Of a stretch of 25,492 nt of DNA, positions 9,374-25,492 are shown piece by piece; positions within the stretch are counted from its first letter, which is position 1, and the number at the start of each line of letters is the position of its first letter. Source of the DNA: an uncultured Planctomycetales bacterium (GTDB taxonomy: Bacteria > Omnitrophota > Gorgyraeia > Zapsychrales > JANLHA01); contig CAZBSU010000002.1 in NCBI GenBank assembly GCA_964494745.1, positions 1-25,492 of the forward strand, read 5' to 3'. The position numbers and the translations under genes are program-made. The notes beneath the pieces are model-generated. The model saw only the letters and a list, made by a program, of their open reading frames with translations. It was not told the origin of the DNA and searched no databases.

Positions 9374-9392
9374 AAAACGCCAAAAGCGGGCT

Positions 9393-9929
9393 TCAGGGGA
9401 TAAGGATTTGTTTGAAGACAAGCTGACAGCGCAGTTTTTCGGCCTTAAAATACTCCCTGCGCAAAGTGAGTTCATCGAGAAAATACTGATAGGGCGGCCC
9501 CTGCATGATGTGGATGAAATGGAGAATATCGGTCAGCCTTCCTTCCAGTGACATGCTGACCGAAAAATGGTTGAATGAATCCACCGTCCTGAGCCGGTCG
9601 GGTTTCATGTCCGTGATCGGCACGCTGATGCGGGCGGAGACGGCCTGGATGTCGGACAACATCTTCGACATAATCTCTTCCGGCGAGTCTTTCTGTTTAT
9701 ACTGAGCCCAAAGCGGCTGATATTCCCGCCGGGCCTCTCTGGCATCCTGGACAAACCGGCGGTGACGCTCCATCTTCTCCTGCGCTATCTCGATCTGATC
9801 CTTGACCGACTCGACATCTCCGCTCAGCCACGGCAAACCGAATTGGAGAAACAGGGCCGCCAGCGCCACCACCACCAGCACATAAGCGATCTTTTGCTCC
9901 CGGCCTGTCCATTTATGTCGTGGCGCCAT
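9393..9929 (-). CDS. GspM/PilO-like inner-membrane platform protein
   Basis: W..RE..I N-terminus, one TM helix, coiled coil, C-terminal ferredoxin-like segment (F.VSMSLEG.L.DILHFI); follows the GspL/PilM-like gene. Confidence 0.8.
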   Translation of the reverse strand: MAPRHKWTGREQKIAYVLVVVALAALFLQFGLPWLSGDVESVKDQIEIAQEKMERHRRFVQDAREARREYQPLWAQYKQKDSPEEIMSKMLSDIQAVSARISVPITDMKPDRLRTVDSFNHFSVSMSLEGRLTDILHFIHIMQGPPYQYFLDELTLRREYFKAEKLRCQLVFKQILIP

Positions 9930-9932
9930 GAT

Positions 9933-11372
9933 CTATCCCCCTGCCTCCCCGGCTTTCAATTGACAGATAATCTTAAACTCCGTGTATTCCTGGCGAAACC
10001 GGACTCTTTGCGTCGCGTATTGCAGGGTGACATCCTGAAAAACCGGCGATTCCACCAGGCGGTTTTGAAAAAGATTGACCTCCCTGCCCGATGCCGCATT
10101 GCCCTGGATCGACAGCATCCCCTGGTTGTCGAGGTTCAGGGTTTGAAAATTGATCTCCCCCGGAGTCAGCTGATACAGCTCGCGGAATATTTCGACGAAA
10201 CGTATCCGTTGCCCCTGCAGGTCGGCAAAAGCGCGCAGGACATCCACCTCCTGTTTAGCGTTATCCGTCAAAGACCGTGCCTGTTTTAACTGTTCCTCCA
10301 CCGCCTGCAAACGCTGTTTGTCCCGGTAAACCTTCGTCCCGAACAAACCGAGGCCCAGCAAACCGGTTATCAGCAACGCAAGAACAAAACGCAGGACAAC
10401 CCGGCGACGGATGCGGGAGGCCTGATTATAGACGACCTCCTGAGGCATCAGGTTGACAAACGCATGCCCTTTCTCGAGCAGGAACCCGATGCTGCGGGTC
10501 AACGACAGCCCTTCCGCCTTCCGCTGGGGAGGCATGCCTAAGGCCTTGTCATAACCCAGATGATCAAACGAGGTCAGGACATCGACCGGGACACGGTAAT
10601 ATTCCTCCAGCTTCTGCGCCATCTGCACCCGCGCCTCCGTGTTGGCGACCACCACGATACGGGTGATATCCGGGCCCATATTTTCCTTGATATAAGCACC
10701 CAAGGTCAACCCGATCTGCTCCAGAAACGCCTCCATCTTATCCTCTACTAGATCACGGGACCCGAAACGAATATTACGGGAAAAAAATAATTTGTCCCGA
10801 TGACAAAAACAAACCTCGGTATTGTCATCATCTACATCCACAAGCATCAAACAGGCGGCGTCCGTCAATTTGGCCACCCTTTTTTGAAAAAGATACCAGT
10901 GCAGGATTCCCTGAGAGCCCAAAAAAAGATGCCGCGGGGTCAGGTTCTGCCTCTGCAGGACTTTTAAAAAATAAAGGACATTCTCCTTCTGAACGACGGC
11001 GATCAAAACACGTGAATATCCCTGCAGATCCTTATCAAGAATAAAATGGCCGAACACGATCTCCTCACGCGGGAAGGGCCCGAGTTGATTGATCTGAAGG
11101 CTAACCATATTTTCGATCTCTTCATCGCTGTGGGAAGGAAGCGTGATCTGTTTCAGGATAGCGTAGCGCCCGGGAATCAAGGCGGCCAAAGAGGAAATAT
11201 TCTTCCCCCGAATCAACTGCGCCAAGGCTCGGTCGAAATCCTGGGGCTGCTGCCCGGCCAACGGCACATGTTCGCAGAGCGTGACCACATGCTGTCCGCG
11301 GGCCCAGCGCAATTCCAGGAGCTTAACATGACTGTCGGTGAATTCAATACAGGTTGTCAGATCTTTTTTCAT
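9933..11372 (-). CDS. GspL-like protein (PilM-like cytoplasmic actin-fold domain, TM helix, PilN-like periplasmic domain)
   Basis: CIEFTDSHVKLLE, LPSHSDEEI..MV.LQ...PF, VNLMP before the TM, coiled coil and PilN-like C-terminus. ATG 11372 (MKKDL) preferred over 11393. Confidence 0.8.
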   Translation of the reverse strand: MKKDLTTCIEFTDSHVKLLELRWARGQHVVTLCEHVPLAGQQPQDFDRALAQLIRGKNISSLAALIPGRYAILKQITLPSHSDEEIENMVSLQINQLGPFPREEIVFGHFILDKDLQGYSRVLIAVVQKENVLYFLKVLQRQNLTPRHLFLGSQGILHWYLFQKRVAKLTDAACLMLVDVDDDNTEVCFCHRDKLFFSRNIRFGSRDLVEDKMEAFLEQIGLTLGAYIKENMGPDITRIVVVANTEARVQMAQKLEEYYRVPVDVLTSFDHLGYDKALGMPPQRKAEGLSLTRSIGFLLEKGHAFVNLMPQEVVYNQASRIRRRVVLRFVLALLITGLLGLGLFGTKVYRDKQRLQAVEEQLKQARSLTDNAKQEVDVLRAFADLQGQRIRFVEIFRELYQLTPGEINFQTLNLDNQGMLSIQGNAASGREVNLFQNRLVESPVFQDVTLQYATQRVRFRQEYTEFKIICQLKAGEAGG

Positions 11373-11414
11373 ACAAATGTCCCAACAAAACAACTTGATC
11401 CGCTGTCTGCCGCC

Positions 11415-12500
11415 TCAGCGTCTGCGCCAGGACAGGATCGTCAAATCATTACGGTCAACCACGGCCTCGATGACCGTCGTGATGCCGCTTTGCGGTTCCT
11501 CGCCGCGAACCCGGATGCGCAGATAACGCGCCGACCTGGCCTGATGCCTTTGCATGCTTAAGGCGATCACCCGTTCTTTCGCATTCAGCGGCATGCTGGC
11601 CAGCTTGACCGGGCGGTCATCGGCAGTAGCGGCCTGGCCGTCATCCCCGCGCCGGTGCATGAGCACCTTTTCCACCAGGCTGTCTGCATCCATAACCTCG
11701 GCATTGGTATAACTTCCGGAGTAATGCCGGGCCACGGCCTGCAGGATCTCATGCGGGGCCGTATCGAAATTAATCCGCAGGGCCCCTCCTTCCGGAATCA
11801 CGGTCAGAAAAGGCCGGACCTGTTCAAATATCTCCGGGGTCACACCCCTGACCGCCGTCAGTTCCTCAACACTGTCAAACGCCCCGTTCTTGCAGGTATA
11901 GGGCCGTTCCAGCGAAAGATAATAATCATTTTCGGCACCATACGCCGGGTTCAGCGGGGCATCATCAATATCCCGCCAGTCCACGACCGCCGTGGCAATC
12001 TCCTCGGCGACATCCTGCTCCTGCCCCAGCAGCATCAACAGGTTGATCAATATCCCGTCATTCTGCGGACCGACCGCATTAAGGTTCAACCGGCTCTGTT
12101 CATCGCCGAACCCGAATACTGCCGTCTTGAGCGCACTTCCACGGCCGATGGGCCGTTCGATACTGAACCGGTTGTCTCCGACCGGGATATCCTCAAATAA
12201 ATCCGCCGGGGTCTTGTCTTGATCAAGAATAAAACCGCAGCGATAAAGGGTATCGCCCTCGGCGCCCCCGGCCAAGCCGTTATCCCGCGCGATCCGGGCC
12301 ATCGCATAGGCCAGGCCCGACAGGGCGGCTGCCCGCGACTGCGTCTTGGCCAAGGCATACCGGGTCAGCTGTATCTCCACGCCGATCTGCCGGCTCAGAC
12401 CGATCGCCATGATCGACAAAATCATCAGAAGCCATAAAACAACAATCAATATTATACCAGAATTATTATTGTGTCTTAGAGAGAAGCGAAAAAAAATCAT
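11415..12500 (-). CDS. gspK: Type II secretion minor pseudopilin K
   Basis: SG-IILIIVLW prepilin helix lacking Glu+5 (typical of GspK), DEQSRLNLN, IATAVVDWRD.DD, FDSVEEL..VRGVT, INFDTAP. Confidence 0.9.
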   Translation of the reverse strand: MIFFRFSLRHNNNSGIILIVVLWLLMILSIMAIGLSRQIGVEIQLTRYALAKTQSRAAALSGLAYAMARIARDNGLAGGAEGDTLYRCGFILDQDKTPADLFEDIPVGDNRFSIERPIGRGSALKTAVFGFGDEQSRLNLNAVGPQNDGILINLLMLLGQEQDVAEEIATAVVDWRDIDDAPLNPAYGAENDYYLSLERPYTCKNGAFDSVEELTAVRGVTPEIFEQVRPFLTVIPEGGALRINFDTAPHEILQAVARHYSGSYTNAEVMDADSLVEKVLMHRRGDDGQAATADDRPVKLASMPLNAKERVIALSMQRHQARSARYLRIRVRGEEPQSGITTVIEAVVDRNDLTILSWRRR

Positions 12501-12527
12501 TTTTTCCCCAACAACGCGCTCTTGATA

Positions 12528-13373
12528 TTATTTGCTTTGAATCACCAACCCGTCTGTCCCTTTTGCGGCTGTGACGCCGGGAATAAAAAACTCCTTATGC
12601 ACGGCCAACCGCCGGCCGTCCTGAGGGAAGACAAATGTCATTTCAAAACGAATCGCGGCCGGTTGACCGAGCCCGATCCATTCATTCTCCCATTCCGGGT
12701 CTTCCTTCGCATCGATAGATTCCCGGCCGGCATATGAAAAAAGCAAACTGTTTTTAAGGATATGCGTCCCGAGAATCTGCTTTTGAACGTCCTGGGCTGT
12801 ATCCAAATCCTGGTAAGGGAAAGGCCGCTCTTCCCGGACTATGAAAACCCAGTCTTCGGCCTGTTGGTCAGACCAGCTTGTCCCGGCGGCAGAGGCCCGC
12901 TGGGCGCGGTTGACCATGACCTGATAGATACGGTTCTGCTCGGGGGGCTCCAGGTAATAGGCGATCTCCCGCAGCCCATTATCACCGGCAACGACCAGGG
13001 AAAGGCTTTGTTCCTGGCCGATAAAGGAACGGTCCAGTTGATCATCCTCGGTCAATCCGAAGATATCCCTCTGGGTGACGGTCACATTCTTTTGCGTCGC
13101 CTCACGAACGATCACCTCCTGCCGGAAAGAGGAACCGAGCTGAGTTTTGTAGCTAACCATATTTTCAAGATCCAGGCTTAGGGTATCGATAATCCCGTGG
13201 GCATCCCGGAACAGGCTTTCCAGGTTTTGCGCCTGGCGATTCAACCGGACAGCATTCGCGAACACGCCATAGACCGTCGTAGACAAAATCCCGAAGATCA
13301 TGATCCCCATCAGGACCTCAACTAAGGTAAAACCTCTGGTCTTGAAAAGGCGTTCTGACACCGGGGTCTTCAT
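12528..13373 (-). CDS. gspJ: Minor pseudopilin, GspJ-like
   Basis: RG-FTLVE prepilin cleavage/methylation motif; position between I and K; C-terminal W...W....P.AIRF. Confidence 0.75.
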   Translation of the reverse strand: MKTPVSERLFKTRGFTLVEVLMGIMIFGILSTTVYGVFANAVRLNRQAQNLESLFRDAHGIIDTLSLDLENMVSYKTQLGSSFRQEVIVREATQKNVTVTQRDIFGLTEDDQLDRSFIGQEQSLSLVVAGDNGLREIAYYLEPPEQNRIYQVMVNRAQRASAAGTSWSDQQAEDWVFIVREERPFPYQDLDTAQDVQKQILGTHILKNSLLFSYAGRESIDAKEDPEWENEWIGLGQPAAIRFEMTFVFPQDGRRLAVHKEFFIPGVTAAKGTDGLVIQSK

Positions 13374-13418
13374 GGCCGCCTCGTCATGTCCTGTTTGATG
13401 TTCATGGTCAGCCCCCGA

Positions 13419-13811
13419 TTAAGGTTCCGTCACCCAGAGTTCGGAGAGGACCTTCTTCTCTTTCCCTCCGGCCGTCCAGCCGATTTCGACGGTCACGGCC
13501 TTCAGCTTATCCAATTCCCGGGCCTGGTCGGCGAGCGGATCCCTCTCCTTAAGGGCATATCGAAAATGCTCATAGGGCTCTTCAAACGGCCCTTGATCAT
13601 CATCGGCCCCCTCGGAGAAGGTCATGAGCTGGGCTATTTTATTATCCAACAACCAGGCCGCCTGAGTATAATCGCGTATATAGCTCACCCCGCGCAGGCA
13701 CGTCATCATTGATGAAATAATGACCGTCAAACTGACAGACAGGATGACCACGACCAGCAAAACCTCGATCAGTAAAAAACCGTACCTGGTTGTCCTTTGT
13801 CTGCGTCTCAT
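13419..13811 (-). CDS. gspI: Minor pseudopilin, GspI-like
   Basis: YG-FLLIE prepilin motif; AA.LLDNKI and V.V.IGW patterns. Start moved to ATG 13811, so the gene no longer overlaps gspH. Confidence 0.75.
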   Translation of the reverse strand: MRRRQRTTRYGFLLIEVLLVVVILSVSLTVIISSMMTCLRGVSYIRDYTQAAWLLDNKIAQLMTFSEGADDDQGPFEEPYEHFRYALKERDPLADQARELDKLKAVTVEIGWTAGGKEKKVLSELWVTEP

Positions 13812-13822
13812 CGAAAACCCCT

Positions 13823-14347
13823 TTATTCCACACGACCGTGGAGAACCAGGACCCGGGCATGCTGATCCTGGGTCGAAAGTGTCAGGCATTGATCCCGGCG
13901 GCATAAAAACAACCGCCCCCCTTCTATGCGGCCGTCCGGATAGAATTCAAACGTTCGCTGAGTCGCTTCCAGTTCAAGCTCGGAAGGGATCATAAATGTG
14001 CGTCCCCAGCGTCCCGGCAGCGGCCTGGTCTCCGCTGCCTGCGTCGAGCCGGAGGCCTGCCCGGAATAAGACCGCAAACGGTAGGATCGCATGTCTTCGC
14101 TGAGGATGAATCGAAGACCTTGCTGATACGCAACCGCGCGCCCCTGGGCATAACGCATCAAGGAGGCTATTTGATTGGTGGTTGATGTCAGGATGATGTT
14201 TCTGAACGAACCGCTGAAGTTCGGGACCGCCATCGCGGCCAGCACACTCAAAATAATCACGACTAGCACAATCTCGATAAAAGTAAATCCCCGGCTCGTT
14301 TGTCGATTAAACGGCAACATCAATCCTGGCGTTTTGGTAGGAATCAC
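13823..14347 (-). CDS. gspH: Minor pseudopilin, GspH/FimT-like
   Basis: RG-FTFIE motif, AVPNF, R.AQ..AV, F.F.PDG; alternative start at ATG 14320. Confidence 0.78.
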   Translation of the reverse strand: MIPTKTPGLMLPFNRQTSRGFTFIEIVLVVIILSVLAAMAVPNFSGSFRNIILTSTTNQIASLMRYAQGRAVAYQQGLRFILSEDMRSYRLRSYSGQASGSTQAAETRPLPGRWGRTFMIPSELELEATQRTFEFYPDGRIEGGRLFLCRRDQCLTLSTQDQHARVLVLHGRVE

Positions 14348-14374
14348 AAAATTTCTTTCGGGATCGGGACGGGA

Positions 14375-14830
14375 TTAAAACGACGCCTCTTCCCCCGTCT
14401 GCCAATTTCTGATATCATCCCCGTTGTCCTGCTCGTCAGGACCCGAAGAATACAGATCATAACTCTCGGGATTGTGTTCTCCTGGAGATTGATATATGTA
14501 GGCGTGCCCCCAGGGATCTTTGGGGATGACCCGTTTTTTGAGATACGGCCCGCTCCAATTTTCCGGGACCGGCGATGAATTGGGTTTTGTCAGCAGGGCC
14601 CGCAGTCCCTGCTCCGAGGTGGGATAGCGGCCATTATCCAGTTCGTACATATCCAGGGCCATTGCCAGATTGGCTTCGATATCGGCCTTGGCCGCGGCGA
14701 TACGGGCCTGCTTCCCCCGGCCGGCGATGTTCGGGATCACCATCCCGACCAGAATGCCGATGATAATCACCACCAGCAGGATCTCCGTCAGGGTAAACCC
14801 GGCCGCCATCAAATATCTTTTTCTAACCAT
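14375..14830 (-). CDS. gspG: Type II secretion major pseudopilin
   Basis: AG-FTLTE motif, LDMYELDNGRYPTSEQGL.AL, W.GPYL, PKDPWGH.Y.Y.SPG, YDLYS.GPD; strong SD GAGGAGG. Confidence 0.96.
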   Translation of the reverse strand: MVRKRYLMAAGFTLTEILLVVIIIGILVGMVIPNIAGRGKQARIAAAKADIEANLAMALDMYELDNGRYPTSEQGLRALLTKPNSSPVPENWSGPYLKKRVIPKDPWGHAYIYQSPGEHNPESYDLYSSGPDEQDNGDDIRNWQTGEEASF

Positions 14831-14917
14831 CGAATCCTCCTCGCTTTTATCCTCATCTTAAATCTTTCCCTTTTATATACCCGCCACCCCTTTTCTTTTA
14901 CCGCTGTGAATGAAGAC

Positions 14918-15035
14918 CAAGCAGAACCAGGAAGTGCCTTGAGGCGAGTTCCGGAACCTCTCGCCTTCATCAAATTCAGGAAAGGCGAGAGGCGTGAGGA
15001 CTGTTTGAGCCTCAAGGCACTTCCTGGTTCTGTTG
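14918..15035. repeat. Nested inverted-repeat (hairpin) element in the gspF-gspG spacer
   Basis: Perfect 24-bp IR 14922-14945 / 15009-15032 (cagaaccaggaagtgccttgaggc), extendable by 3 bp past a bulge. Inner perfect 11-bp IR 14957-14967 / 14982-14992; 10-bp palindrome gttccggaac at 14948-14957. Confidence 0.9.
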
Positions 15036-15074
15036 ACGATTAAATTTGCTCATAGCGTTAATCTTCCATCCTTT

Positions 15075-16304
15075 TTACTGAATAATTAAATTCATCCGGA
15101 AGATCGGCATCAACATGGCCATAACCACAAAACCGACAATCACACCCATAACCAAAATCAGCATCGGCTCCATCAATGACAACATCCTTTTGATAAAACG
15201 CTGCGAACGCCGCTCATAATAATCCGCCAATTTATACAGGCCTTTTTCCGTATGGCCGGACTCGGCGCCCACCGCCACCATGCTGACCACGGTTTCCGGA
15301 AAATATTCATTGCCGGCCAGCGCCGCGGCCAGACTCTTGCCGTCCTGGACATCAGCGGCGACGTTCCGGACCTGGCGTCGCAGGACCTCGTTCTCCAGCA
15401 CCCGTCCGACCGAATCCAAAGCAGCCAGGATCTCGACTCCGCTTTCCAGCAGCGTGCCCAGCGTCCGGGCAAAACGACCCAGCTGGATATCCCGCAAAAA
15501 ATCGCCGACTAAAGGCACCCTTAATTTCAGACGGTCGAGCATGAGTTTGCCTTTCGGGGTCGCATACGCCTTTTTCAAATACAACAAACCGGCGGCTAAC
15601 AACACCAGAAAAAGCCACCAAAATTTGGCAAAAAAACCGCTGATGGCAATAAGCACCACGGTCGGCAGAGGCAGGGCCTGATTCAAATCCTCGAAGATCA
15701 ACGTAATGCGCGGGATGACCCAGGTCAACAGCACAAAAACGGTGATCCCGCCGACAATAACGATCAGGGCCGGATACAACAGGGCCGTCGTGACCTGATT
15801 CCTGACATCCTGATCCCGTTCGTTGAATTCCGCCAAACGGTCCATCACCAAATCCAGATTGCCGGCCATTTCTCCGGAACGGGCCATGTTCACATACAAT
15901 AACGGAAAGATATCCGGAAATTGGCTCAAGGCCCGCGAAAAGGATCCGCCGTCGCGCACAACCGTTATCATCTGCCGAACATCCTCTTTGAAACCGGGAT
16001 GACGCATCTGGCGCTGGACGATGATAAGGGTTTGCAAAAGAGAAACACCCGCGCCCAAAAGATCACTCACTTGCCGGGTGAACATCAGGACGTCGCCCGC
16101 CGGGACGCCGCGTCCCGGGAAAAAAGTCCCGCCGCTGGGTGTCTTCTGGGCCTTGCGGCTGTCGCGTTGGGGTTTTTGCTTGATGTGAATCGGGGAAAGG
16201 CCCCGCTCCAGGAGCTTGGCAACCGCGCCGTCGGAGCTTTCGGCCTCGACCAGACCTTCGACGATCTTTTGGGGGCCCTGTTTGGCTTTATAAACGAATT
16301 GCAT
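15075..16304 (-). CDS. gspF: Type II secretion inner-membrane platform protein (GspF/PilC family)
   Basis: F.YKA N-terminus, FTRQ.S.LL.AG, GGSFS.AL, E.AGNL, ALLYP, RF.RTLGTLL.SGV, GAESG, EP.LILVMG..VGFVV.AML.PIF. Confidence 0.94.
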   Translation of the reverse strand: MQFVYKAKQGPQKIVEGLVEAESSDGAVAKLLERGLSPIHIKQKPQRDSRKAQKTPSGGTFFPGRGVPAGDVLMFTRQVSDLLGAGVSLLQTLIIVQRQMRHPGFKEDVRQMITVVRDGGSFSRALSQFPDIFPLLYVNMARSGEMAGNLDLVMDRLAEFNERDQDVRNQVTTALLYPALIVIVGGITVFVLLTWVIPRITLIFEDLNQALPLPTVVLIAISGFFAKFWWLFLVLLAAGLLYLKKAYATPKGKLMLDRLKLRVPLVGDFLRDIQLGRFARTLGTLLESGVEILAALDSVGRVLENEVLRRQVRNVAADVQDGKSLAAALAGNEYFPETVVSMVAVGAESGHTEKGLYKLADYYERRSQRFIKRMLSLMEPMLILVMGVIVGFVVMAMLMPIFRMNLIIQ

Positions 16305-16382
16305 AAGTGTCTTTTAACGCCGCATGACACACGCCGAGGCGACCTAAAATATTTCTATGCCCCCGGCGCATCTCGGACAACG

Positions 16383-18083
16383 TTAATTTTCTTCCTTGGT
16401 AACACGGACAACTTCTTCGGGCGTCGTCAACCCCTGCCGCACCTTTTCCCAACCGTGGCGCAAAAGGATTTTCATGCCCTGCTCCCGGGCCTTCTTCCTT
16501 ATCTGTCCCGACGAGGCCCGGCTGTTGATCAGCTCCCGGATATCCTCGGACATCGGTAAAAATTCGTAAATGCCTTCGCGGCCGTAATACCCGGTATTAT
16601 TGCAGTAATTGCAGCCCTTGCCTTCGTAGATGGTGACGCCCTCGACATCCGCCGGCGACAGCCCAAAATCATGAATAATGTCCGGCGTCAGATTCCGTTC
16701 GGTCTTGCAGCGCGGGCAGATCAACCGGATCAGGCGCTGGGCGATGAAACACTCGACCGCGCTTGAGATCAGATACGGCTCAACGCCCATATCGATCAAA
16801 CGGGTGATGCCGCTGACCGCGTCGTTGGTATGCAGGGTGGAAAAGACCAAGTGACCGGTCAGGGCGATCTGGATCGCGATCTCAGCCGTTTCCAGATCGC
16901 GGACCTCCCCGACCATCATGATATCCGGGTCGTGACGAAGCATCGAGCGCAGGCCGCGGGCAAAGGTCAGGCCGATCGTCGGATAGATCTGAACCTGGGT
17001 GATCCCTTTAAGCTGATATTCGATGGGGTCTTCGATCGTGATAATCTTGCGGTCGGCCTTGTTGATCCGCGACAAACAGGCATACAGGGTTGTGGTCTTG
17101 CCGCTTCCGGTCGGCCCGGTGACATAAATGATCCCATGCGGCTTATGGACCAGCCGGTCCAGCTTGGTCTGATCCTCCGCCGAAAGCCCGAGCTCGCTCA
17201 TATTATATAATTTGGCCGACGACAAGATGCGGATCACGGTGCTTTCCCCGAACTGGGTCGGCAGGAAAGAAACCCTCAAATCCAGATCGGTATTGCCGAT
17301 ACGCACCTGAAACCGGCCGTCCTGGGGCAAACGTTTCTCGGCGATATTCAGCCGTGACATGATCTTGATACGGGAATTAATGGAATCCTTGAAATGAAAA
17401 AGGTTGCCCGGGACCTGGGCGTCACGCAGGATCCCGTCAACCCGGTAACGGATCATGAGCTCGTTTTCAAACGGCTCGATATGGATATCCGTGGCCCGCT
17501 GGCGGTAAGCCTCCATCAGGATCTGATTGATGAACTTCCCGATCGAGGCCTCGGAATCGATCTCGGATATATCGGTTATTTTTGTCTCGACCGCCTCGGG
17601 CGGCTGGACGGCATCCATCATACGGGCGATGGTCTCGGCCCCCACGCCGTAATATTTCCGGACCGCCTCAGCGATATCCTTCTCGCTGGCCAGCACCGTC
17701 CTGATCTTGAACGGCACGATCAGGCTGATACCGTCGATCACATTGATATCCAAGGGATGCGAGGTCGCCACGGTCAGGAGATCGGACTCAAACCGCACCG
17801 GAACGACTTTGTAATAAACCGCGAACTTGGCCGGGATGCGGGCGATCACGTCACGGGGGATATTGATATTGCGGAGATTGACGAATTCGACCCCCAGCTG
17901 ACCGGCCAAAAGGGGCATAAAGACCGATTCCTCGTCCACAAAACCGAGGGTCATCAGGGTGACACCAAGCAGCTCCCCGGTCTCACGCTGTTTTTTAAGG
18001 GCGATATCCAGCTGGTCGGTATTGATCAGACCGTTCTCAACCAGGATCTCGCCAAGGCGCTTTTTGGGGTTGTTTTGGGACAT
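16383..18083 (-). CDS. gspE: Type II secretion ATPase (GspE/PilB family) with MshEN-like N-terminus
   Basis: RLGEILVENGLI...QL..AL..Q N-terminus, ATDIHIEP, EKRLPQDG, Walker A GPTGSGKTT, TIEDPIE, RHDPDIMMVGEVRD, TGHLVFSTLH, CxxC...CxxC. Confidence 0.95.
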   Translation of the reverse strand: MSQNNPKKRLGEILVENGLINTDQLDIALKKQRETGELLGVTLMTLGFVDEESVFMPLLAGQLGVEFVNLRNINIPRDVIARIPAKFAVYYKVVPVRFESDLLTVATSHPLDINVIDGISLIVPFKIRTVLASEKDIAEAVRKYYGVGAETIARMMDAVQPPEAVETKITDISEIDSEASIGKFINQILMEAYRQRATDIHIEPFENELMIRYRVDGILRDAQVPGNLFHFKDSINSRIKIMSRLNIAEKRLPQDGRFQVRIGNTDLDLRVSFLPTQFGESTVIRILSSAKLYNMSELGLSAEDQTKLDRLVHKPHGIIYVTGPTGSGKTTTLYACLSRINKADRKIITIEDPIEYQLKGITQVQIYPTIGLTFARGLRSMLRHDPDIMMVGEVRDLETAEIAIQIALTGHLVFSTLHTNDAVSGITRLIDMGVEPYLISSAVECFIAQRLIRLICPRCKTERNLTPDIIHDFGLSPADVEGVTIYEGKGCNYCNNTGYYGREGIYEFLPMSEDIRELINSRASSGQIRKKAREQGMKILLRHGWEKVRQGLTTPEEVVRVTKEEN

Positions 18084-18684: not shown

Positions 18685-19473
18685 ATGATCGCCGAACATC
18701 TTGAATTATACAAAAAGTGGTTTAAGGATTACGCCCGCAGCTTTCTCGGCGGAAGCGAAACCGATGACAATAATATCCAGATCAAGATCGACCACACCCG
18801 GCGCGTCTGTGACGAGATCACCTTCCTGAGCCGGAGCCTTGGCCTGGACAAAGACGATATCGCTCAGGCCCAGATCTGCGCACTTTTTCACGATGTCGGC
18901 CGTTTCGAACAATACAAACGCCACGGCACCTATGCCGACCATCAATCCGAAGACCATGCCCAGTTGGGCGTGACGATCCTCCGTCAGCAAAAAGTCTTAG
19001 CCAACCTGCCCGCGGCACAACGGGAACTGATCATCCGTGTGATTGCCTGCCATAACCTCGCCCGCCTACCTGACGATCTGGACGAGCGCACCTGTTTTTT
19101 TGCGCGCCTCCTGAGGGACGCGGACAAACTCGATATCTGGCGGGTCGTCGTCGCCTATTATCGTGAACGCGAACACAAGCCCAACACGGTCATCGAGCTG
19201 AATCTGCCCGATACCCCCGGTCTATCTGCCGGCGTCCTGAACGATCTGCGCGCCGGGCGGTTCGTGGACCGCAGGCATATCCGCAATCTCAACGATTTCA
19301 AACTGCTCCAGGTCGGATGGATTTATGACCTCAACTTTCCCGCGACTTACCGTCTTGTCAAAGAAAGGAATTATCTGGGCAGTATCCTGGGCCACATAAC
19401 CGACGGCCCCGAGCTGGCCAAGGTGCGCGCCCTGATCACGGCTTTCCTGGAGGAAAAAACAAGGCATCAATAG
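18685..19473 (+). CDS. HD-domain metal-dependent phosphohydrolase, substrate unknown
   Basis: H (KIDHT), HD (FHDVGR), H (EDHA), H (CHN), D (RDADKLD). ATG 18685 preferred over TTG 18664. Confidence 0.88.
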   Translation: MIAEHLELYKKWFKDYARSFLGGSETDDNNIQIKIDHTRRVCDEITFLSRSLGLDKDDIAQAQICALFHDVGRFEQYKRHGTYADHQSEDHAQLGVTILRQQKVLANLPAAQRELIIRVIACHNLARLPDDLDERTCFFARLLRDADKLDIWRVVVAYYREREHKPNTVIELNLPDTPGLSAGVLNDLRAGRFVDRRHIRNLNDFKLLQVGWIYDLNFPATYRLVKERNYLGSILGHITDGPELAKVRALITAFLEEKTRHQ

Positions 19474-21092
19474 TCCAAAACCCGGGCGCGGATAAAGACC
19501 ACATGCTCAATCCGCCGGCTCTTTGTGCGTTGTCTTTGGAAAACCCGGCCGAGAAAAGGGACATCCCCCAGCAGGGGGACCTTACGGGTCATCTGAATCT
19601 GTTCCTCTTCGAACATCCCGCCGATCACGGCCACCTTATCGTCGCCCACAGCCAAGTCAATCTTTGCCTGCCCCCCTTTTTCTTTTCGAAGCGGACGCGA
19701 CGGGATTACCGTTAACGTAAGGGACTGGTCCAGATGCACGACCGGCACAAATTCAAAATCCATTCCCTCCGGCAGGGAGCTGTCTTGAGAAACGTCGGCC
19801 TGGGGCCCCGCGCCCGTCTTCGCACGGCTTCCGGCATCCTTTAGCTCAAGCGTCATCTCTTTATTGGCAAACCCGACCCCCAAAGTGATTTTGTCCCGGG
19901 CCAGAGCCATGACGCCCGGGCCCGGGGCAAACGACATCTGCCCCACGGTATCCATCGCCTCCATCAGGACATCATAATCCTCCTGACTGATACTCCCGAC
20001 GCTGACATCCTTGTCATACGGTGTGCAGGATGACTCATCCTCGGTCAGGCAGCGGTAATCAGACACGATCGCCTCCCAGTCGATTCCGCTCTGGTATTCC
20101 TCGGATAAAATAACCCGCACGCTCTCGGTCTCGATCATGACGCGATGGGGCACGTCCCAGGCCTGGACCGATTCGGTGATCCGGGCCAGGGCCGGGACCG
20201 TATCCGTGACGATCACCTTGCGCTCTGTCTCATCATAACGGGCATAACCGCGGTCATCGGTCAACAACTCCCGCACCTTTCCCAGGACTTCCTGACCAGG
20301 GGCATACGCCAGCAGAAAGATCTCCGTCCGGACCTCAACATCCTTCTTCGCCATCAAGGCCGTCATGTCCTTTAAATTGGCCGGGGTGTCGACCAGGACC
20401 ACGGTCTTGTGATCGCCCGATAAGGTGATTCGGCCACGGGAACCCTTCAACTCTTCCAGCTGGGGAAGGATGACCTGCGGATCGATGTATTTGAGACGGA
20501 CAACCCGGGATGAAAAATTTTGATCAAACCGGTAGCTGTATTCGCTCTCAAATGTCTCCGCGGTCATAATCCGCACACCGCTGTCTTTCACGACCATGGC
20601 CAGACCGTGGCGGTCAACCAACACCTTTAAAATATCCCGCACCTCAACGTCGGCAAGGGTCAACGTCACCGAGCCAACCACCCCCGCGTCCACCTGGATC
20701 GGCAGGCCGCTTTGACGCCCGATCGACCGCAAGGCGAGAAAAAGGTCTTCCTCTTGGAACTCCACCCGTATCCGTTCGCTCAAAAGGGCCTCGGGGTCGA
20801 TCAGCTCCAGCGCAGGCCTTTCGGGCGCGGGGGTCGCCGGCACCGGCGATGAAGTCACGGCCCCCGATTCAGACGGCCCCTGCCTTTCTTCCTGCAAAAG
20901 CGCCTCGGTCTGATCCAGGGCATCCAGGGCGTTCCTGATGACCGCGTCTTTGTCTTCGGCTTTCGGTTCTGTCAAAAGAAAAAGACTGAATAACAGCGCT
21001 AAAACACATGCAGCCATCCGCTGCCAGGACAGTAAAGTCCGACTCATAAAAGCCCTGCGTGGATTATTCACGTAACGACGTTTATTCTTCAA
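19467..21092 (-). CDS. Second, divergent secretin (GspD/PilQ family paralog)
   Basis: Signal peptide, STN/N0-like and two N domains, GIDWEAIVSDY, VIGGM, KVPLLGDVPFLGRVF; collinear with 6882-8696. Start may be ATG 21047. Confidence 0.85.
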   Translation of the reverse strand: MKNKRRYVNNPRRAFMSRTLLSWQRMAACVLALLFSLFLLTEPKAEDKDAVIRNALDALDQTEALLQEERQGPSESGAVTSSPVPATPAPERPALELIDPEALLSERIRVEFQEEDLFLALRSIGRQSGLPIQVDAGVVGSVTLTLADVEVRDILKVLVDRHGLAMVVKDSGVRIMTAETFESEYSYRFDQNFSSRVVRLKYIDPQVILPQLEELKGSRGRITLSGDHKTVVLVDTPANLKDMTALMAKKDVEVRTEIFLLAYAPGQEVLGKVRELLTDDRGYARYDETERKVIVTDTVPALARITESVQAWDVPHRVMIETESVRVILSEEYQSGIDWEAIVSDYRCLTEDESSCTPYDKDVSVGSISQEDYDVLMEAMDTVGQMSFAPGPGVMALARDKITLGVGFANKEMTLELKDAGSRAKTGAGPQADVSQDSSLPEGMDFEFVPVVHLDQSLTLTVIPSRPLRKEKGGQAKIDLAVGDDKVAVIGGMFEEEQIQMTRKVPLLGDVPFLGRVFQRQRTKSRRIEHVVFIRARVLDY

Positions 21093-22431
21093 AATACATG
21101 GCCTTCTTGATTTTATCCATCTGCGTCTGCCGGCGCGGGTCGTTCGGATAGCGTTTGAGCAACTTCCGCTCGATCTCGAATGCTTCGTGCAAACGGCCTA
21201 TCTGTTTAAGGATCTCGGCCTTGGTATCAAGATAAGCATAATTATCGGGATCATCGTCCAGCGCGCGGTTCACCAGTTCCAGCCCGCGGTCAAGATGTTC
21301 ACCCCGCTGCGCGTAAAGCCAGGCCAAATCGTTATGCGCGGGCACATGATCGGGCTGCTCGCGGATACTCTGCTGCAGCAGCTCTTCTTTTTGCTGATCT
21401 GTCAACTGAAAATAGCGCACCTGATATTCGAAATACGCCGGATTGGCCAACAGCACCATGACAAGCGGGATCACCGTCATGCCGAAATTGAAAGCATAAT
21501 GAGCCATAATTGAAGGAATACTTGATCCGGTCCAGGCCCGCAAGACCGTAAGCACAAAACCTAAAACCGTAACCGCGGCGATGGCCGCCCAGTCGCCCCA
21601 ATACTGATCATAATGCAGCAACGCGAATACCAAGCCGATGACCGCCACGGCGAAAAGGTTTCCTTTTAAACGGGCGAGCACCTGAAAAAAATAACCACGA
21701 AAAATAACCTCCTCAAAAAACGGGGCCAGAAGCACGGCCACGACAAGGAAGGAAAACAGCAAACCGAAGGACTCCGTGGAGGCCAGCATGTTATGAAAAG
21801 GCGTCGACGGCTGGTGGGCGCGTGACATCATGACCAAGGCCGACACCCACGCGCAGAAAAAACCGATCAGGACCGGAAGGACCCACAACCGCCATCCGGA
21901 CTGGGCCTTCACCTGAAGCCCGAGCAAGACCCGATAGCGGCAGCCGGGATAATTCCGGCTGATACGATAAACCAGCCCCAACATCAACACCGAGGAAAAT
22001 AAGGCGACAATAACCGTCCGCCCCAGAGGGGCGTCGCCGAACGGCATGATCGGGGCCAGGACCTCGACCAGAACGGCAAAAACGATCATGCCCGCGATCC
22101 AAAAAAGGACCAACCCAAAGGTATCGGAAAGCATGGTCAGGCGGGAATCCATAAAATTCTTGCTGCTATCTTTCAAAAACAAATTATGTTTAAAATGAAC
22201 CCGGCAGCTCAGGTAAACCGTCAGGAGAAAAACCATAAGCAAGACGGGCAGGCGTTCGACCTGACCGGCCAGGCGCGACAATACGGCCAAAAAAAGCAGG
22301 GCCAGACAAAGCCCGCCGGCCTGAAGCAGGGTCAGGGAAAAACTCCGGCGGAACGTTTCCCGATCTTGCCTTTTCAACAGGTAAATATCCAACACGATGA
22401 TGGACCAAAAGATAACCACGCCGAAAAACAT
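21082..22431 (-). CDS. CPBP (Abi/CAAX-family) intramembrane glutamic endopeptidase with extra N-terminal TMs and C-terminal TPRs
   Basis: PFFEEVIFRG, FALLH and AH..FN catalytic motifs; multiple TM helices; C-terminal TPR-like helices (AHNDLAW.YA...LDRGLELVNRAL...P.N..YLDT.A). Confidence 0.85.
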   Translation of the reverse strand: MFFGVVIFWSIIVLDIYLLKRQDRETFRRSFSLTLLQAGGLCLALLFLAVLSRLAGQVERLPVLLMVFLLTVYLSCRVHFKHNLFLKDSSKNFMDSRLTMLSDTFGLVLFWIAGMIVFAVLVEVLAPIMPFGDAPLGRTVIVALFSSVLMLGLVYRISRNYPGCRYRVLLGLQVKAQSGWRLWVLPVLIGFFCAWVSALVMMSRAHQPSTPFHNMLASTESFGLLFSFLVVAVLLAPFFEEVIFRGYFFQVLARLKGNLFAVAVIGLVFALLHYDQYWGDWAAIAAVTVLGFVLTVLRAWTGSSIPSIMAHYAFNFGMTVIPLVMVLLANPAYFEYQVRYFQLTDQQKEELLQQSIREQPDHVPAHNDLAWLYAQRGEHLDRGLELVNRALDDDPDNYAYLDTKAEILKQIGRLHEAFEIERKLLKRYPNDPRRQTQMDKIKKAMYFEE

Positions 22432-22501
22432 AATATTCCTTAAGCTAGCGGTTAGCGAGATCTGCCCTCAAGGGCTTAATATACACAAGCCCGCCTTACC
22501 T

Positions 22502-23434
22502 TTACCTGCCTTTCCTAAACCCGGCGATAAAAAAACCTTCCATCTCTTCCGTCGGCAGGACTCGAAGACAGCGTGACACGCGCGGATCGTATGCCCGCCC
22601 TTCCCAAGCCGTCACGGCCGGATAAGTTTCGATTCCCGCCAAGGTCAAATCCAACATCTCCATCTGCCCCGCGGTCTTGCGCAGGAGCCAATCGGCCACG
22701 GCCTCATTTTCCTCCGGCGCGAAGGTACAAGTCGAGTATATCAGAATCCCGCCTTTTTTCAATAACCGCGACGCATTCAGCACCAGGCCCTTCTGTTTGC
22801 GCGCCATCTCCTTGATCTTGCGCGGGCTCCAGAAAAGACGGGTCTTGGGGTCATCTATCTTGAACCGGGCCTCACAGCTGCAGGGAGCATCAACCAAAAT
22901 CCGGTCAAACAGCTCCCGGTCGCGAAACCTACGGCCGTCCGCGCAAATCAAACGGGCATTAGCAACACCAAGCCGGCTCAAGACAGACTTCAATTTGTAA
23001 TACCTTTTACGGATTGGCTCAACACAGACCAGCTCGCCCTGATTGCCCATGCGGGCCGCGATCTGGGAGGCCTTGCTGCCCGGCGCGGCGCATAAATCCA
23101 GCACCCGTTCTTCGGGCTGCGGATCAAGAAGCGCAACCGGAAGCATGCTCGCCAAAGACTGGATATAAATCCGGCCGTCGGCCAACAAACCTGTCGTCTC
23201 CAATTCCCGGGAAGATAACAATGGAAAGACCAGGGCCTGTGCTGACCAGGGGATAGTTTTAAATGGGACCTTGAGCCCACGCAGGATTTCTTTCAACTCA
23301 TCCGGACCTGTCTTAAGCGCATTAATCCTGGCACTGACGGGCGCACGCATGGAAAAAGTCGCTTTAACCCTTTCCAAATAAGAATTTGCGAGAATTTTCG
23401 CGAGCCGGTCAATAAATTCTTGTTTTAGTTCCAT
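22502..23434 (-). CDS. RsmB/NOP/RsmF family RNA m5C methyltransferase (short form, catalytic domain only)
   Basis: IYIQSLASM, DLCAAPGSK, LVDAPCS, YSTCT..PEENE, GFFIA; no NusB-like or C-terminal PUA extension visible. Confidence 0.9.
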   Translation of the reverse strand: MELKQEFIDRLAKILANSYLERVKATFSMRAPVSARINALKTGPDELKEILRGLKVPFKTIPWSAQALVFPLLSSRELETTGLLADGRIYIQSLASMLPVALLDPQPEERVLDLCAAPGSKASQIAARMGNQGELVCVEPIRKRYYKLKSVLSRLGVANARLICADGRRFRDRELFDRILVDAPCSCEARFKIDDPKTRLFWSPRKIKEMARKQKGLVLNASRLLKKGGILIYSTCTFAPEENEAVADWLLRKTAGQMEMLDLTLAGIETYPAVTAWEGRAYDPRVSRCLRVLPTEEMEGFFIAGFRKGR

Positions 23435-23498
23435 ATAAATTCAATACTAAAAAATTTGTTTCTTATTAATATTTATACTATACTTTATTTGAGGTATT
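23435..23498. promoter_or_regulatory. AT-rich divergent promoter region
   Basis: 64 bp with 9 G/C by hand count (about 14%). Plus strand TTGTTT (23456-23461), 17 nt, TATACT (23479-23484); SD GAGGT at 23491-23495. Confidence 0.55.
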
Positions 23499-24899
23499 AT
23501 GAAACACTTTTCTTCCCAAAAAGCCCAAAGCCCGATTGAAAGCACCACCCTGGGCGTGCTGTCCATTATCGCGCTTTTGGTCATGAGCACCTATGTGACG
23601 CGCTCGATCAACGCCTATTTCAAGACCACCGAGGACACGCTCAAGGATTCCATCGCCGAAGATCTGCTGCAGTCCGAACGCGCCGAAAGCCCGGAATGCG
23701 ATTGCAGCAACGAGATCGTCGGGGAATGCGGGGGAGGAGACTGCGACGACAGCCAGGAGCTGGTCAGCTATACATGCACTCCAGAAGGCTGTGGCCATCG
23801 CCCGCCCTGGTGCCGGACCAACCGCCCCCGCTGCTGTTATGAGGAAGGGGATTGCATGGAAAACGGCTGCCCTAACGGCACCAAATACATCCGCACTTCC
23901 TGCGAAAACGAACCGCTGACGTATATTTGCGACAAGGACGAAGAATGCAAGATCTGCTGCAATCCGCAGGAGCCCATGGGGCCCTGGTGCCCCATGGACG
24001 GCGAAACCAATCCGGCCTGCCCCTCCAGCCTAACCGCTGTCAAGGATGTGCGCTATGTCGGGAACGACATCACCGATTGCGGGGCCTACGTGCCCCAGGA
24101 GGTCTGCGACGCGGTCTGCACGCCGCCTCTGATTCCGGCCGTCGCAGAAGGCTCGGAATTGACCTATGCCTATGGCTGCGCCTGCCCGCCGGGATATCAC
24201 CAGACCACCAATGATGACGGCGAGATTGTCTGCGAATTTATTTACGATTGTCAACTCAGGGGGATTTCCTATTACAGCAGTGATCAAAATAGCACCTGTT
24301 TGACGAATTATGGCACCCAATATGCCATGAATAATTACGGCTGTGTCTGGGACAACCATTATTGCCGCTACAACAACATGGAATGCTGCACCCTTCCACC
24401 TGAAGTGGAGATCGATACCTCCGTCTGCACCTATACGCCATGGCTAACGGTAAGCACCAGCTCGGCAGGTATCTTTAGTTCTCTTTTGGGAATTAATCTT
24501 CACGTTGACGGCGTGGAAGGCGAGGATGCCCTGTTGGCGGCAGGAACGGACCCCCTCGGCATAACCAGCTGTCCGGCCAATTATGTTGCCGTTGGTATCG
24601 ATTACGGGCACGGCGCCACACATGGCCAGGTGGCCGACACAACAAACATGATTTACCGGCTGGAATGCTGCCCGCTGCGTGCTACACGGTCCGGGGCCGG
24701 ACAAAATGTTCAGGTTTCCGATTGCTCTTGGACGTCCGATTATCATGGCGGCTTAATTGCCGATCAGGGCTGCGCAGAGTTTAACGACGATCACACTTAT
24801 TTCGCGGTGGCCCTGGATATGTGGGGATATATGGACGGCTGGCTTGGTTATCAAGGCGCCGCGCATAAGACCAAGTGCTGCCGCGTATCAGTTGAGTAA
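23499..24899 (+). CDS. Cysteine-rich exported protein with Flp/TadE-like prepilin N-terminus (putative pilus-tip adhesin)
   Basis: SD GAGGT; N-terminus KA-QSPIE (Ala at -1, Glu at +5) followed by a hydrophobic helix; 38 Cys, all from residue 67 onward; EGF-like C-x-CPPGY motif; C-terminal repeats ending in CC. Confidence 0.75.
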   Translation: MKHFSSQKAQSPIESTTLGVLSIIALLVMSTYVTRSINAYFKTTEDTLKDSIAEDLLQSERAESPECDCSNEIVGECGGGDCDDSQELVSYTCTPEGCGHRPPWCRTNRPRCCYEEGDCMENGCPNGTKYIRTSCENEPLTYICDKDEECKICCNPQEPMGPWCPMDGETNPACPSSLTAVKDVRYVGNDITDCGAYVPQEVCDAVCTPPLIPAVAEGSELTYAYGCACPPGYHQTTNDDGEIVCEFIYDCQLRGISYYSSDQNSTCLTNYGTQYAMNNYGCVWDNHYCRYNNMECCTLPPEVEIDTSVCTYTPWLTVSTSSAGIFSSLLGINLHVDGVEGEDALLAAGTDPLGITSCPANYVAVGIDYGHGATHGQVADTTNMIYRLECCPLRATRSGAGQNVQVSDCSWTSDYHGGLIADQGCAEFNDDHTYFAVALDMWGYMDGWLGYQGAAHKTKCCRVSVE

Positions 24900-24906
24900 T
24901 AGAACG

Positions 24907-25027
24907 CAGATCGCGTAGATCGGGACAGTCCCTGAAAGGGACATAGCAAAATATAAAAAGGGACAGACGTTATTGATATAAAAATAACATCTGTCCCTTT
25001 TCTATTAAATTTATGAAACGCGATCTG
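24907..25027. repeat. Nested inverted-repeat element with GGGACAG/CTGTCCC units
   Basis: Outer perfect 10-bp IR cagatcgcgt 24907-24916 / acgcgatctg 25018-25027; gggac-a-gtccc 24922-24932; gtccct-gaa-agggac 24928-24942; inner 19-bp IR. Confidence 0.7.
24956..25001. terminator. Probable bidirectional intrinsic terminator
   Basis: 19-bp IR aaaagggacagacgttatt 24956-24974 / aataacatctgtccctttt 24983-25001 (one mismatch, G-U on the minus strand); T-runs on both sides; lies between convergent genes. Confidence 0.75.
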
Positions 25028-25045
25028 GCCCGCGTCCTTTATCTC

Positions 25046-25372
25046 TCAGAAATCGTAATCCGCGCTGTTATCGACTGAAACGTCGCTTTTATAATCCCCG
25101 CCCTCGGCCGCCGCCTCTTCCCTCTCCCATTCATCCAATTCAACGGCATGCGAAAGAAGGAATTCAACCTCTCTTCTGACATCTTCATCCTCGTTCTCCA
25201 TCAGGATATTGACCAATTTCTCCCGGATCGGGGAATGATGGGTGCCGTCCAGGATAACACGGTAATCCTGATAATCCTCGCGGTAAACCACCTGGGAGAC
25301 CTGGCGCTTGAGCCCCATCTCCTCAAGGATCTTCTGGATCATCCGGCTGACTTTTTCTTCATCATACGCCAT
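25046..25372 (-). CDS. Acidic hypothetical protein
   Basis: Purine-rich SD (AGGGAAGGGAG), upstream promoter, GC3-rich codons; 29 of 108 residues are Asp/Glu. Confidence 0.75.
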   Translation of the reverse strand: MAYDEEKVSRMIQKILEEMGLKRQVSQVVYREDYQDYRVILDGTHHSPIREKLVNILMENEDEDVRREVEFLLSHAVELDEWEREEAAAEGGDYKSDVSVDNSADYDF

Positions 25373-25437
25373 ACAAACTCCCTTCCCTAGAACATCAAAG
25401 ATAATATCCTTATTCGGCGATCAGTCAAGTCTCTTTA

Positions 25438-25466
25438 AACTTATACCATGTCCGCGAAGTTGTCAA
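25438..25466 (-). promoter_or_regulatory. Putative sigma70 promoter for the acidic hypothetical gene
   Basis: Perfect TTGACA (25461-25466), 17 nt, TAAGTT (25438-25443); an overlapping TGGTATAAG is also present. Confidence 0.55.
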
Positions 25467-25492
25467 CATCCGCCCGGAATTAATTCGATCCG

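Follow-up and report, generated by a model that had tools for sequence, protein, structure and literature searches.

We analysed a window of 25,492 nucleotides (nt), i.e., positions 1 to 25,492 of contig CAZBSU010000002.1 from an uncultured Planctomycetales bacterium (assembly GCA_964494745.1; Omnitrophota in the GTDB lineage), and focus here on a cysteine-rich gene near its end. The gene is a complete open reading frame (ORF) on the + strand (23499..24899) that runs from an ATG start to a TAA stop and encodes 466 amino acids (aa). In the following, this product is called the query, loci carry L-numbers, relatives carry P-numbers, and X1 and X2 denote metagenome runs. A GAGG ribosome-binding site is found at 23491-23494, 4 nt before the ATG, and the ORF is the only long one with homologues on the stretch examined. 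X1, a hydrothermal-vent metagenome, contains 89% of the words sampled from 22500-25492. Its contigs do not differ from the window over 22997-25171, i.e., over most of the gene, and the DNA contigs confirm the gene's sequence at about 5x depth. Given the X1 contig match and about 100 homologue clusters, the gene is real.

The N-terminus of the query reads MKHFSSQKA/QSPIES (the slash marks the predicted cut) and continues into a hydrophobic stretch with a Kyte-Doolittle mean of 1.7-1.8 over residues 11-34. Based on the family logo, residues M1-A9 (23499..23525, +) form a predicted class III leader, MKHFSSQKA, with a net charge of +2 and a predicted prepilin-peptidase cut after Ala9. The predicted mature N-terminus, Q10-R35 (23526..23603, +), has Gln at +1, Glu at +5 (E14, 23538-23540) and a hydrophobic alpha1-N helix according to conservation, hydropathy and AlphaFold. 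It is followed by an amphipathic continuation of the helix over residues 36-59 (23604..23675, +; SINAYFK..ED..DS..E), which family conservation suggests to be the equivalent of alpha1-C. AlphaFold, run with the family alignment, predicts a single helix for residues 10-53, with block means of the predicted local distance difference test (pLDDT) of 84-95 over residues 11-50.

The motif is sharper in the family than in the query. We aligned 105 relatives on it. Position -2 is Lys or Arg, position -1 is mostly Ala (52) or Gly (49; the query has Ala9), and position +1 is Gln in 105/105 sequences, as is Q10 of the query. At +5 we find Glu in 100/105 and Gln in the remaining 5 (E14 in the query), while +6 is Tyr in 84/105 and Ser in the query. 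That is, with respect to the G/XXXXEY motif, the query (A/QSPIES) has the small residue at -1 and Glu+5 but lacks Tyr+6. Family leaders are mostly 4-10 aa long with a mean net charge of +1.9. Beyond +6, conservation extends (in mature numbering) over Gly16, Gly21-Pro22-Tyr23, R26-S-I-N-A-x-F-K33 and D41-S42, where N29, A30, F32, K33, D41 and S42 are conserved; R35 and D50 (query numbering) are near-invariant. The closest relatives of the query read KAQVTIET or KAQFSIEY at the motif, and we read Ser+6 as a peculiarity of the query's subclade.

Type IV prepilin signals consist of a hydrophilic leader ending in Gly or Ala, followed by 20-25 hydrophobic residues, often with Glu5 (Pelicic 2023, PMC10191384). 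The query agrees with this description, i.e., its leader ends in Ala9, the hydrophobic stretch (residues 11-34) lies within the predicted helix, and Glu is at +5. Neither for a plain anchor nor for a substrate of signal peptidase I would one expect an invariant polar residue at +1, an acidic one at +5 and a small one at -1. By these sequence features the N-terminus of the query family is a class III (prepilin) signal, more strongly so at the family level than in the query alone. The same signal had been read from the query by an initial annotation of this DNA; the logo, the weak Flp_Fap matches described next and the Tad/Pil contexts of relatives all speak for that reading.

Next, we compared the N-termini with curated models. 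None of 100 relatives matches N_methyl (PF07963 / IPR012902), which does match the window's own pseudopilins, and the TadE-like model PF07811 matches neither the query nor any of the 100. Flp_Fap (PF04964) gives sub-threshold matches in 8/100 relatives (best E = 7.7e-4; profile positions 9-44 of 46); the scores printed for two members are 12.8 and 13.7 bits, compared to a Pfam cut-off of 32.2 bits. In addition, PF04021 (Class_IIIsignal) and TIGR04205 match one relative each, both marginally (E about 0.01). The query thus fits the descriptive class III definition but no curated model (N_methyl, Flp_Fap at threshold, TadE, Class_IIIsignal), and we therefore do not file it as a member of Flp or TadE.

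The second distinctive part is the ectodomain. The initial annotation had counted 38 Cys and five CC doublets in the 466-aa ORF at 23499-24899 and had noted a stretch C227-A-C229-PPGY...C245. Our sequence count agrees in each point: the query has exactly 38 Cys, all within residues 67-461 and none before 67, with CC doublets at 112, 153, 296, 390 and 460, and the C227-A-C229-P-P-G-Y...C245 stretch is present. The Cys content of 8.2% compares with 0-3% in 25 other proteins of the window. Cytoplasmic enzymes of the window have 1-3% Cys, and the exported proteins (GspD, GspC, GspG, GspF, GspK, an AsmA-like protein and a second secretin) have 0-0.6%. The query is thus an outlier within its own envelope proteome.

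Residues 65-250 (23691..24248, +) form the family-defining Cys-rich core, which is predicted to be beta-rich and holds 24 of the query's Cys. About 21 core Cys are conserved in at least 88% of the relatives. AlphaFold on the query alone was unusable (mean pLDDT 40). An alignment of 100 sequences gave a confident model for residues 10-250 only, with a pLDDT of about 90 in the core. The model predicts an N-terminal helix of 44 residues and, behind it, a beta-rich domain; pLDDT stays high up to residue 250. A fold search with the confident core model found no structural neighbour and no EGF-containing structure. That is, the modelling and fold comparison suggested along with the initial annotation yields a confident core to which no known structure corresponds.

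The ectodomain had also been called EGF-like and eukaryote-style, which we do not uphold. The EGF_2-type pattern of PROSITE is C-x-C-x(2)-[GP]-[FYW]-x(4,8)-C; the last spacer of the query is 11 and thus outside the pattern, and Pfam gives no EGF match. The pattern fits 14/101 relatives, mostly at the C-x-C-P-P-G-[YFW] site at the end of the core. What is left is a resemblance of patterns, with no EGF match and no structural neighbour for the core. The even number of Cys, which had also been pointed out, is likewise uninformative and is rejected as disulfide evidence, since Cys counts are even in 49 family members and odd in 45.

For the chemistry of the core Cys, we favour disulfides, given the predicted extracytoplasmic location and the joint gain of C153 and C174 (neither Cys in 76 members, both in 4, only one in 1; Fisher p = 3e-6). 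The joint gain is probably a single evolutionary event and is thus weak evidence for disulfides. Alternatively, the core Cys may be metal ligands (knuckles of Zn or Fe-S type), such that in a vent anaerobe the core may serve metal binding or redox chemistry, which would be compatible with any localisation model. The first Cys motif, C-x-C-x(5-7)-C-G-x(3)-C...C-x-P-x-x-C, bears a weak likeness (E = 0.03-0.3) to the AWS/pre-SET region, which binds Zn, in NSD methyltransferases, odd Cys counts are as common as even ones, the window DNA is of hydrothermal-vent metagenome origin, and an anaerobic lifestyle is described for many Omnitrophota. The nearly Cys-free state of the other exported window proteins would also fit an organism that uses few periplasmic disulfides. 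On the other hand, the NSD match is not significant and a common outcome for Cys-rich profiles, His and other usual co-ligands are not conserved, C153 and C174 were gained together, as disulfide partners are, and the core has a predicted extracytoplasmic location, in which Cys usually end up in disulfides. We thus consider metal ligation quite unlikely. The AWS/pre-SET zinc motif of NSD proteins was rejected as not significant (E = 0.03) and serves only as a caveat for the Cys chemistry. Given this resemblance, the odd/even parity and the Cys-poor exported neighbours, we do not treat the disulfides as settled.

The remainder of the query, residues 251-466 (24249..24896, +), is a lineage-specific C-terminal module with 14 Cys. 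A repeat alignment resolves it into three degenerate repeats (about 251-299, 310-393 and 409-463) of the pattern C-x-W ... C ... Y-V-x-V-G ... ending in CC-x-[LVM]. Only P0020 and the C-terminus of P0018 have these repeats in common with the query, and the module is modelled with a pLDDT below 50. We also considered a VMO-I-like beta-prism (C-P-x-x-Y-V-x-G...C pattern) for the repeats; an 8-repeat profile gave no PDB match at E <= 10 and no Pfam match, such that this idea is unsupported.

The comparison with the syntenic orthologues of L016, L015 and L018 reveals three tiers of conservation. Residues 1-62 are 60-71% identical and residues 63-250 are 32-35% identical, while residues 251-466 have no detectable homology in these orthologues. 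For the genes flanking the family gene, identity is 53-92% in L016 and L023, the closest relatives, vs. 42-60% in L018. Orthologue lengths are 383, 466, 500, 537, 579, 635 and 875 aa, and full-length relatives in general cover about 250-875 aa. The tails of other members match Laminin_G_3, PA14, Gly_rich_2, phage adhesin GP38, choice-of-anchor C and Hint/intein domains, among which Laminin_G_3, PA14 and GP38 are lectin or adhesin families. The GP38 phage tail-fibre adhesin match has E = 7e-8. The Hint/intein-like domain lies in the C-terminal part of P0074 (L029 7894-9453; Hom_end_hint E = 8e-7, NCBIfam intein model E = 1.8e-4).

Several family genes may occur in one genome. Tandem paralogues are present in L007, L017 and L029, and two contigs of one metagenome-assembled genome (MAG) also carry paralogues (L008, L010). 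In the metagenomes, X1 and X2 contigs (same vent and marine samples) have loose ends at window positions 23607-23644, i.e., they match the N-terminal helix region only and then diverge. At these ends, ...LIMGSYVVKA and ...DSFHETMLQS are encoded, which P0008 and P0003/P0004 also have, such that several family paralogues or strain variants co-occur in the samples.

No named family covers these proteins, as the initial annotation had expected. The whole query has no match in Pfam, NCBIfam or the PDB sequences. An exhaustive phmmer search, run against 1.84 billion cluster representatives, gave 101 proteins at E <= 1e-3, of which 14 reach E <= 1e-10; most of the 101 align to query residues 1-115 or 1-250. 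A word-indexed search is nearly blind to the family (1 relative by protein, 2 by profile). Ten relatives were looked up and all are unnamed, nine in single-member clusters and one in a two-member cluster; over eleven relatives, the only source name seen was 'hypothetical protein'. A locus scan of species-representative genomes with 13 close sequences yielded 12 family loci, namely 5 from Candidatus Omnitrophota, 6 from 'uncultured Planctomycetales' (third-party annotation, TPA, bins) and 1 from a 'bacterium'. We count all genome hits as Candidatus Omnitrophota MAGs, including bins that carry the Planctomycetales label. So far, the family is found only in Omnitrophota-type uncultured bacteria. 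The papers that we searched on Omnitrophota and type IV filaments make no mention of such proteins. The query family is unnamed; it would be pilin-like in its working and is set apart from the Flp and TadE families.

Further evidence comes from the genes around the relatives. In L012 and L027, i.e., in two genomes, the family gene is accompanied by genes for a PpiC-type peptidyl-prolyl isomerase (PPIase), RcpC/CpaB, an RcpA-type secretin fused to TonB_C and a TadZ-TadA fusion ATPase. By gene order, the family gene occupies the flp position of these tad loci; L027 also contains a small Flp-like gene, which stands apart about 10 kb downstream of the family gene. In these loci (L012 11100-15725; L027 13275-17533) the RcpA-type secretin carries one or two TonB C-terminal domains, TadZ (ParA-like) and TadA (T2SSE ATPase) are joined in a single 720-aa protein, and the PPIase gene is located between the pilin-like gene and rcpC. 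In L028 and L029, family genes (two in tandem in L029) are flanked by PilM/PilN(/secretin) genes on one side and PilC/PilB genes on the other and are the only pilin-like ORFs there according to an ORF motif scan. In L011, a 687-aa member with Laminin_G_3 closes an operon of pseudopilin, GspK-like, PilM/N, unknown and tetratricopeptide repeat (TPR) genes. Finally, L026 has an N_methyl-containing gene cluster 2-4 kb off and an orphan secretin nearby. Overall, filament machinery is found in about 4-5 of about 11 independent family contexts. Near a random gene, filament genes are expected in a few percent of cases (a rough estimate, not computed), and the family contexts are far above this.

From these observations, the query is probably a modular Flp-like type IV pilin that presents a variable binding head on a Cys-rich stalk. 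The leader M1-A9, which is short and basic, and the hydrophobic helix would direct Sec insertion into the inner membrane, with the C-terminal part in the periplasm. A prepilin peptidase of TadV or PilD type would then cut after Ala9 and expose Gln10, which may cyclise to pyroglutamate. Glu14 (+5) and the alpha1 helix would serve extraction from the membrane and assembly into a type IV filament, i.e., a Tad/Flp-type pilus or, in some lineages, a fibre like that of type IVa pili (T4aP) or of a type II secretion system (T2SS). The small Flp that L027 also has makes a minor, tip or interspersed subunit the most likely role of the query. The core (residues 65-250), with about 11 probable disulfides, would act as a rigid, protease-resistant stalk, and the C-terminal module (251-466) would be the exposed binding head that attaches the cell to host, prey or surface. 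Cleavage, filament incorporation, disulfide bonding and adhesion of the query are steps that we infer. For the pilus display and the adhesin or receptor-binding role that the initial annotation had proposed, the gene contexts and the replacement of the C-terminal module between orthologues are the suggestive evidence.

A further-reaching version is possible but doubtful: the family may be a phylum-specific, so far undescribed class of pilus-displayed receptor-binding proteins that combine a Flp-like helix, a new disulfide-knotted stalk fold and interchangeable heads. The head repertoire, i.e., several paralogues per genome that are replaced between close relatives, would then set the range of host or prey attachment.

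Several observations weigh against a modular pilin. First, the query departs from its family by Ser at +6, Pro at +3 and Ser-Thr replacing Gly21-Pro22. Neither the query (466 aa) nor its residues 1-64 match any Pfam model at E <= 10, N_methyl PF07963 included, and no pilin model of Pfam, NCBIfam or InterPro type matches the query at threshold. Furthermore, with 466 aa the query would be an unusual subunit, since Flp pilins are normally 50-90 aa long. Filament genes are missing within 8-10 kb of about half of the family loci, and only housekeeping neighbours are found in L002, the L003-L006/L020/L022 group, L007, L019, L030, L032 and L034. In the window, no prepilin peptidase or Tad gene is in view, and no disulfide-forming enzyme turned up, although none was specifically looked for. 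RNA runs were looked for and none was found. The odd/even split of the Cys counts and the T2SS data given below also belong here.

Part of these points would suit an uncleaved signal anchor, i.e., the query as a type II membrane protein with a periplasmic Cys-rich domain that works as an accessory or platform part, sensor or binder without ever becoming part of a filament. Bitopic membrane proteins do occur in filament machineries (TadG, PilN/PilO types), no pilin hidden Markov model matches at threshold, many family loci lack filament genes, and the query has lost Tyr+6 and Pro22. Such an anchor would leave unexplained why 105 members combine an invariant Gln+1, 95% Glu+5 and a strict Gly/Ala at -1 after a short basic leader, why some are matched by Flp_Fap-like profiles and why the gene heads Tad operons in a flp-like position. 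In addition, the wholesale C-terminal replacement is better suited to an exposed surface protein than to a periplasmic platform part. We thus consider an anchor unlikely and keep to the modular pilin.

Within the window, the query gene is divergent from an rsmB/F-like methyltransferase gene (22502-23434, -). Further upstream, the - strand carries a fusion of a CAAX protease and TPR repeats, a second, divergent secretin and a complete T2SS; an HD-domain gene is on the + strand. In the region 19467-22431 (-), which holds both genes, the second secretin has 541 aa, and its start overlaps the end of the CAAX/Rce1-type intramembrane protease with its fused TPR repeats. The order secretin, CAAX-TPR, rsmB/F, family gene is kept in L016, L018 and L023. 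The T2SS at 6882-18083 (-) comprises gspE, F, G, H, I-like, J-like, K, gspL (a PilM/PilN-type fusion), M-like, C and D, and L016 and L023 (GspE 92% identical) keep the window's gene order. A scan of the window for the motif G/F-T-L-x-E hits only gspG and the gene at 12528-13373; the query lacks the motif.

The T2SS of the window has a full G-H-I-J-K pseudopilin set of its own with canonical G/FTLxE signals. Furthermore, L009, L013 and L026 lack the T2SS block at this locus. Their family gene still adjoins rsmB/F and a short secretin gene of about 270 aa, which is all that these three loci have between the amidase and rsmB/F genes. The presence here and absence there suggest an insertion or loss of the 11-kb T2SS block. 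Given the complete pseudopilin set and the missing block, we regard the T2SS as a neighbour rather than a partner, probably a coincidental one. A functional link between query and T2SS was therefore rejected as a conserved feature.

The same data bear on two other roles. An ordinary Sec-dependent exoprotein that is secreted by the neighbouring T2SS could be suspected from the distance of 5.4 kb between the query gene and gspE and from the conservation of this arrangement in L016 and L023. The hydrophobic stretch, however, has about 20 or more residues and is followed by a highly conserved helix instead of an evident A-x-A site, four intervening genes have other orientations, and the family gene stays in L009, L013 and L026, where the T2SS is missing. 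We see very little chance for this role.

Alternatively, the class III signal could mount globular domains on a short envelope-spanning structure, similar to a bindosome or pseudopilus and as for the Sulfolobus proteins that bind sugars, for the capture of a ligand (substrate, metal) rather than for long-pilus attachment. This explanation shares the class III signal evidence with the modular pilin and has a precedent in archaea, where class III signals occur on non-pilin binding proteins, the bindosome (Makarova 2016, PMC4858521). It would also accommodate that T2SS-like rather than pilus genes adjoin the family gene in the window, L016, L023 and L011, and that the query is very acidic (65 Asp+Glu vs. 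24 Lys+Arg). But the T2SS link is not conserved at the locus, no substrate-binding-protein domain is detected in the query, and the recognised tails of relatives (Laminin_G_3, PA14, GP38) belong to lectin or adhesin and not to solute-binding families. Such a display is thus distinctly improbable.

Besides the genes discussed so far, some local features are of note. The rsmB/F gene and the query gene are separated by an AT-rich divergent intergenic region of 64 bp (23435..23498, read from the sequence), for which a promoter scan gave one weak sigma-70-like match (23472-23500); shuffled sequence scores as well. Downstream of the query gene, a hairpin at 24955..25002 with a perfect stem of 20 bp, a loop of 8 nt and a T-run on the - strand separates it from the convergent ORF 25046-25372 (-). 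The hairpin is likely a bidirectional terminator; its stem far exceeds the usual length of intrinsic terminators. ORF 25046-25372 encodes a very acidic protein of 108 aa with weak DUF3050 similarity (E = 2.8e-4) and is kept downstream of the family gene in relatives (77% identical in L015, 42% in L018).

At the other end of the window, a queuosine precursor cluster covers 2726-4968 (-) with the transcription order PTPS-like (6-pyruvoyl-tetrahydropterin synthase), QueC, QueE, QueF. The PTPS-like ORF (4600-4968) was called from its L026 orthologue, and the cluster order is kept in L009, L013 and L026. The housekeeping order common to window and MAG loci is Ham1, RNase PH, QueF, QueE, QueC, PTPS, racemase and amidase, with 41-64% protein identity. 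By this synteny, the organism of the window would belong in or close to Omnitrophota.

Omnitrophota are widespread, uncultured and mostly ultra-small bacteria that are thought to be parasites or predators, with Tad and type IV pili as the main suspected attachment devices (Seymour 2023, PMC10066038). Tad pili are common in the phylum, and V. archaeovorus, a predator, expresses its Tad complex when co-cultured with its host, Methanosaeta; adhesins or host-recognition proteins are not known for Omnitrophota (Seymour 2023, PMC10066038). The query family offers concrete adhesin candidates, i.e., proteins with a conserved pilin-type anchor, a Cys-rich stalk without structural relative and heads that differ between syntenic orthologues. 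If the further-reaching version given above holds true, the interchangeable heads would set to which host or prey cells these ultra-small, putatively parasitic or predatory bacteria attach. The family would also widen the known size range of Flp-like pilins, so far tiny helices, up to proteins with 250-875 aa. Finally, one may ask how a vent organism that is apparently anaerobic and has otherwise Cys-poor exported proteins folds a protein with 8-13% Cys outside the cytoplasm.

How the family relates to known systems differs between its parts. With EGF-like and other eukaryotic disulfide-rich modules, it has the Cys density and the C-x-C-P-P-G-[YFW] hairpin at the end of the core in common, which is a likeness at the motif level only. 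With archaeal class III proteins (PF04021, Q-x-S-x-E-x-x-x-L; Epd-type pilins; the Sulfolobus bindosome; Cys-containing type IV pilus (T4P) components of Thermoproteales), it shares Gln+1, Glu+5, Leu/Ile+9, Lys/Arg at -2 and Gly/Ala at -1. Multiple conserved Cys are also known from some archaeal T4P components (Makarova 2016, PMC4858521). In contrast to these, the host of the query family is bacterial and diderm (BamA, LpxD and secretins are encoded in the loci), Ser+3 is not conserved in the family, and no homology extends beyond the signal.

The likeness to Flp and TadE/TadF of the Tad (type IVc) system covers the short leader, the small residue at -1, Glu+5, Tyr+6 (in 80% of the family) and a +1 position that is not Phe or Met. 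Weak PF04964 matches over the motif and the flp position of some members before rcpC-rcpA-tadZ/tadA are in accordance with this. The differences are equally clear. The best printed PF04964 score is 13.7 compared to 32.2 bits, and TadE does not match. Family members have 250-875 aa, compared to 50-90 for Flp and about 150-200 for TadE/F. Gln+1 is invariant in the family, and a post-membrane helix (YVxRSxNAxFK) as well as the 185-aa Cys-rich domain are added. In the query itself, +6 is Ser, and there are no Tad genes in the vicinity.

Type IV pilins onto which adhesive modules are grafted (modular pilins) are known from Streptococcus sanguinis (PilB/PilC) and from the tip pilins CofB/TcpB, which are low-abundance or tip subunits (PMC10191384). 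These have canonical N_methyl-type signals, a recognisable pilin fold and known modules (vWA, lectin), whereas the query family shows a Flp-like or archaeal-like signal, a core without known fold, extreme Cys content and an outer module that differs between orthologues. Still, both put extra globular (in the query, putative) binding modules behind a pilin-type N-terminus, such that the modular pilins would be the nearest known match for the proposed working of the query.

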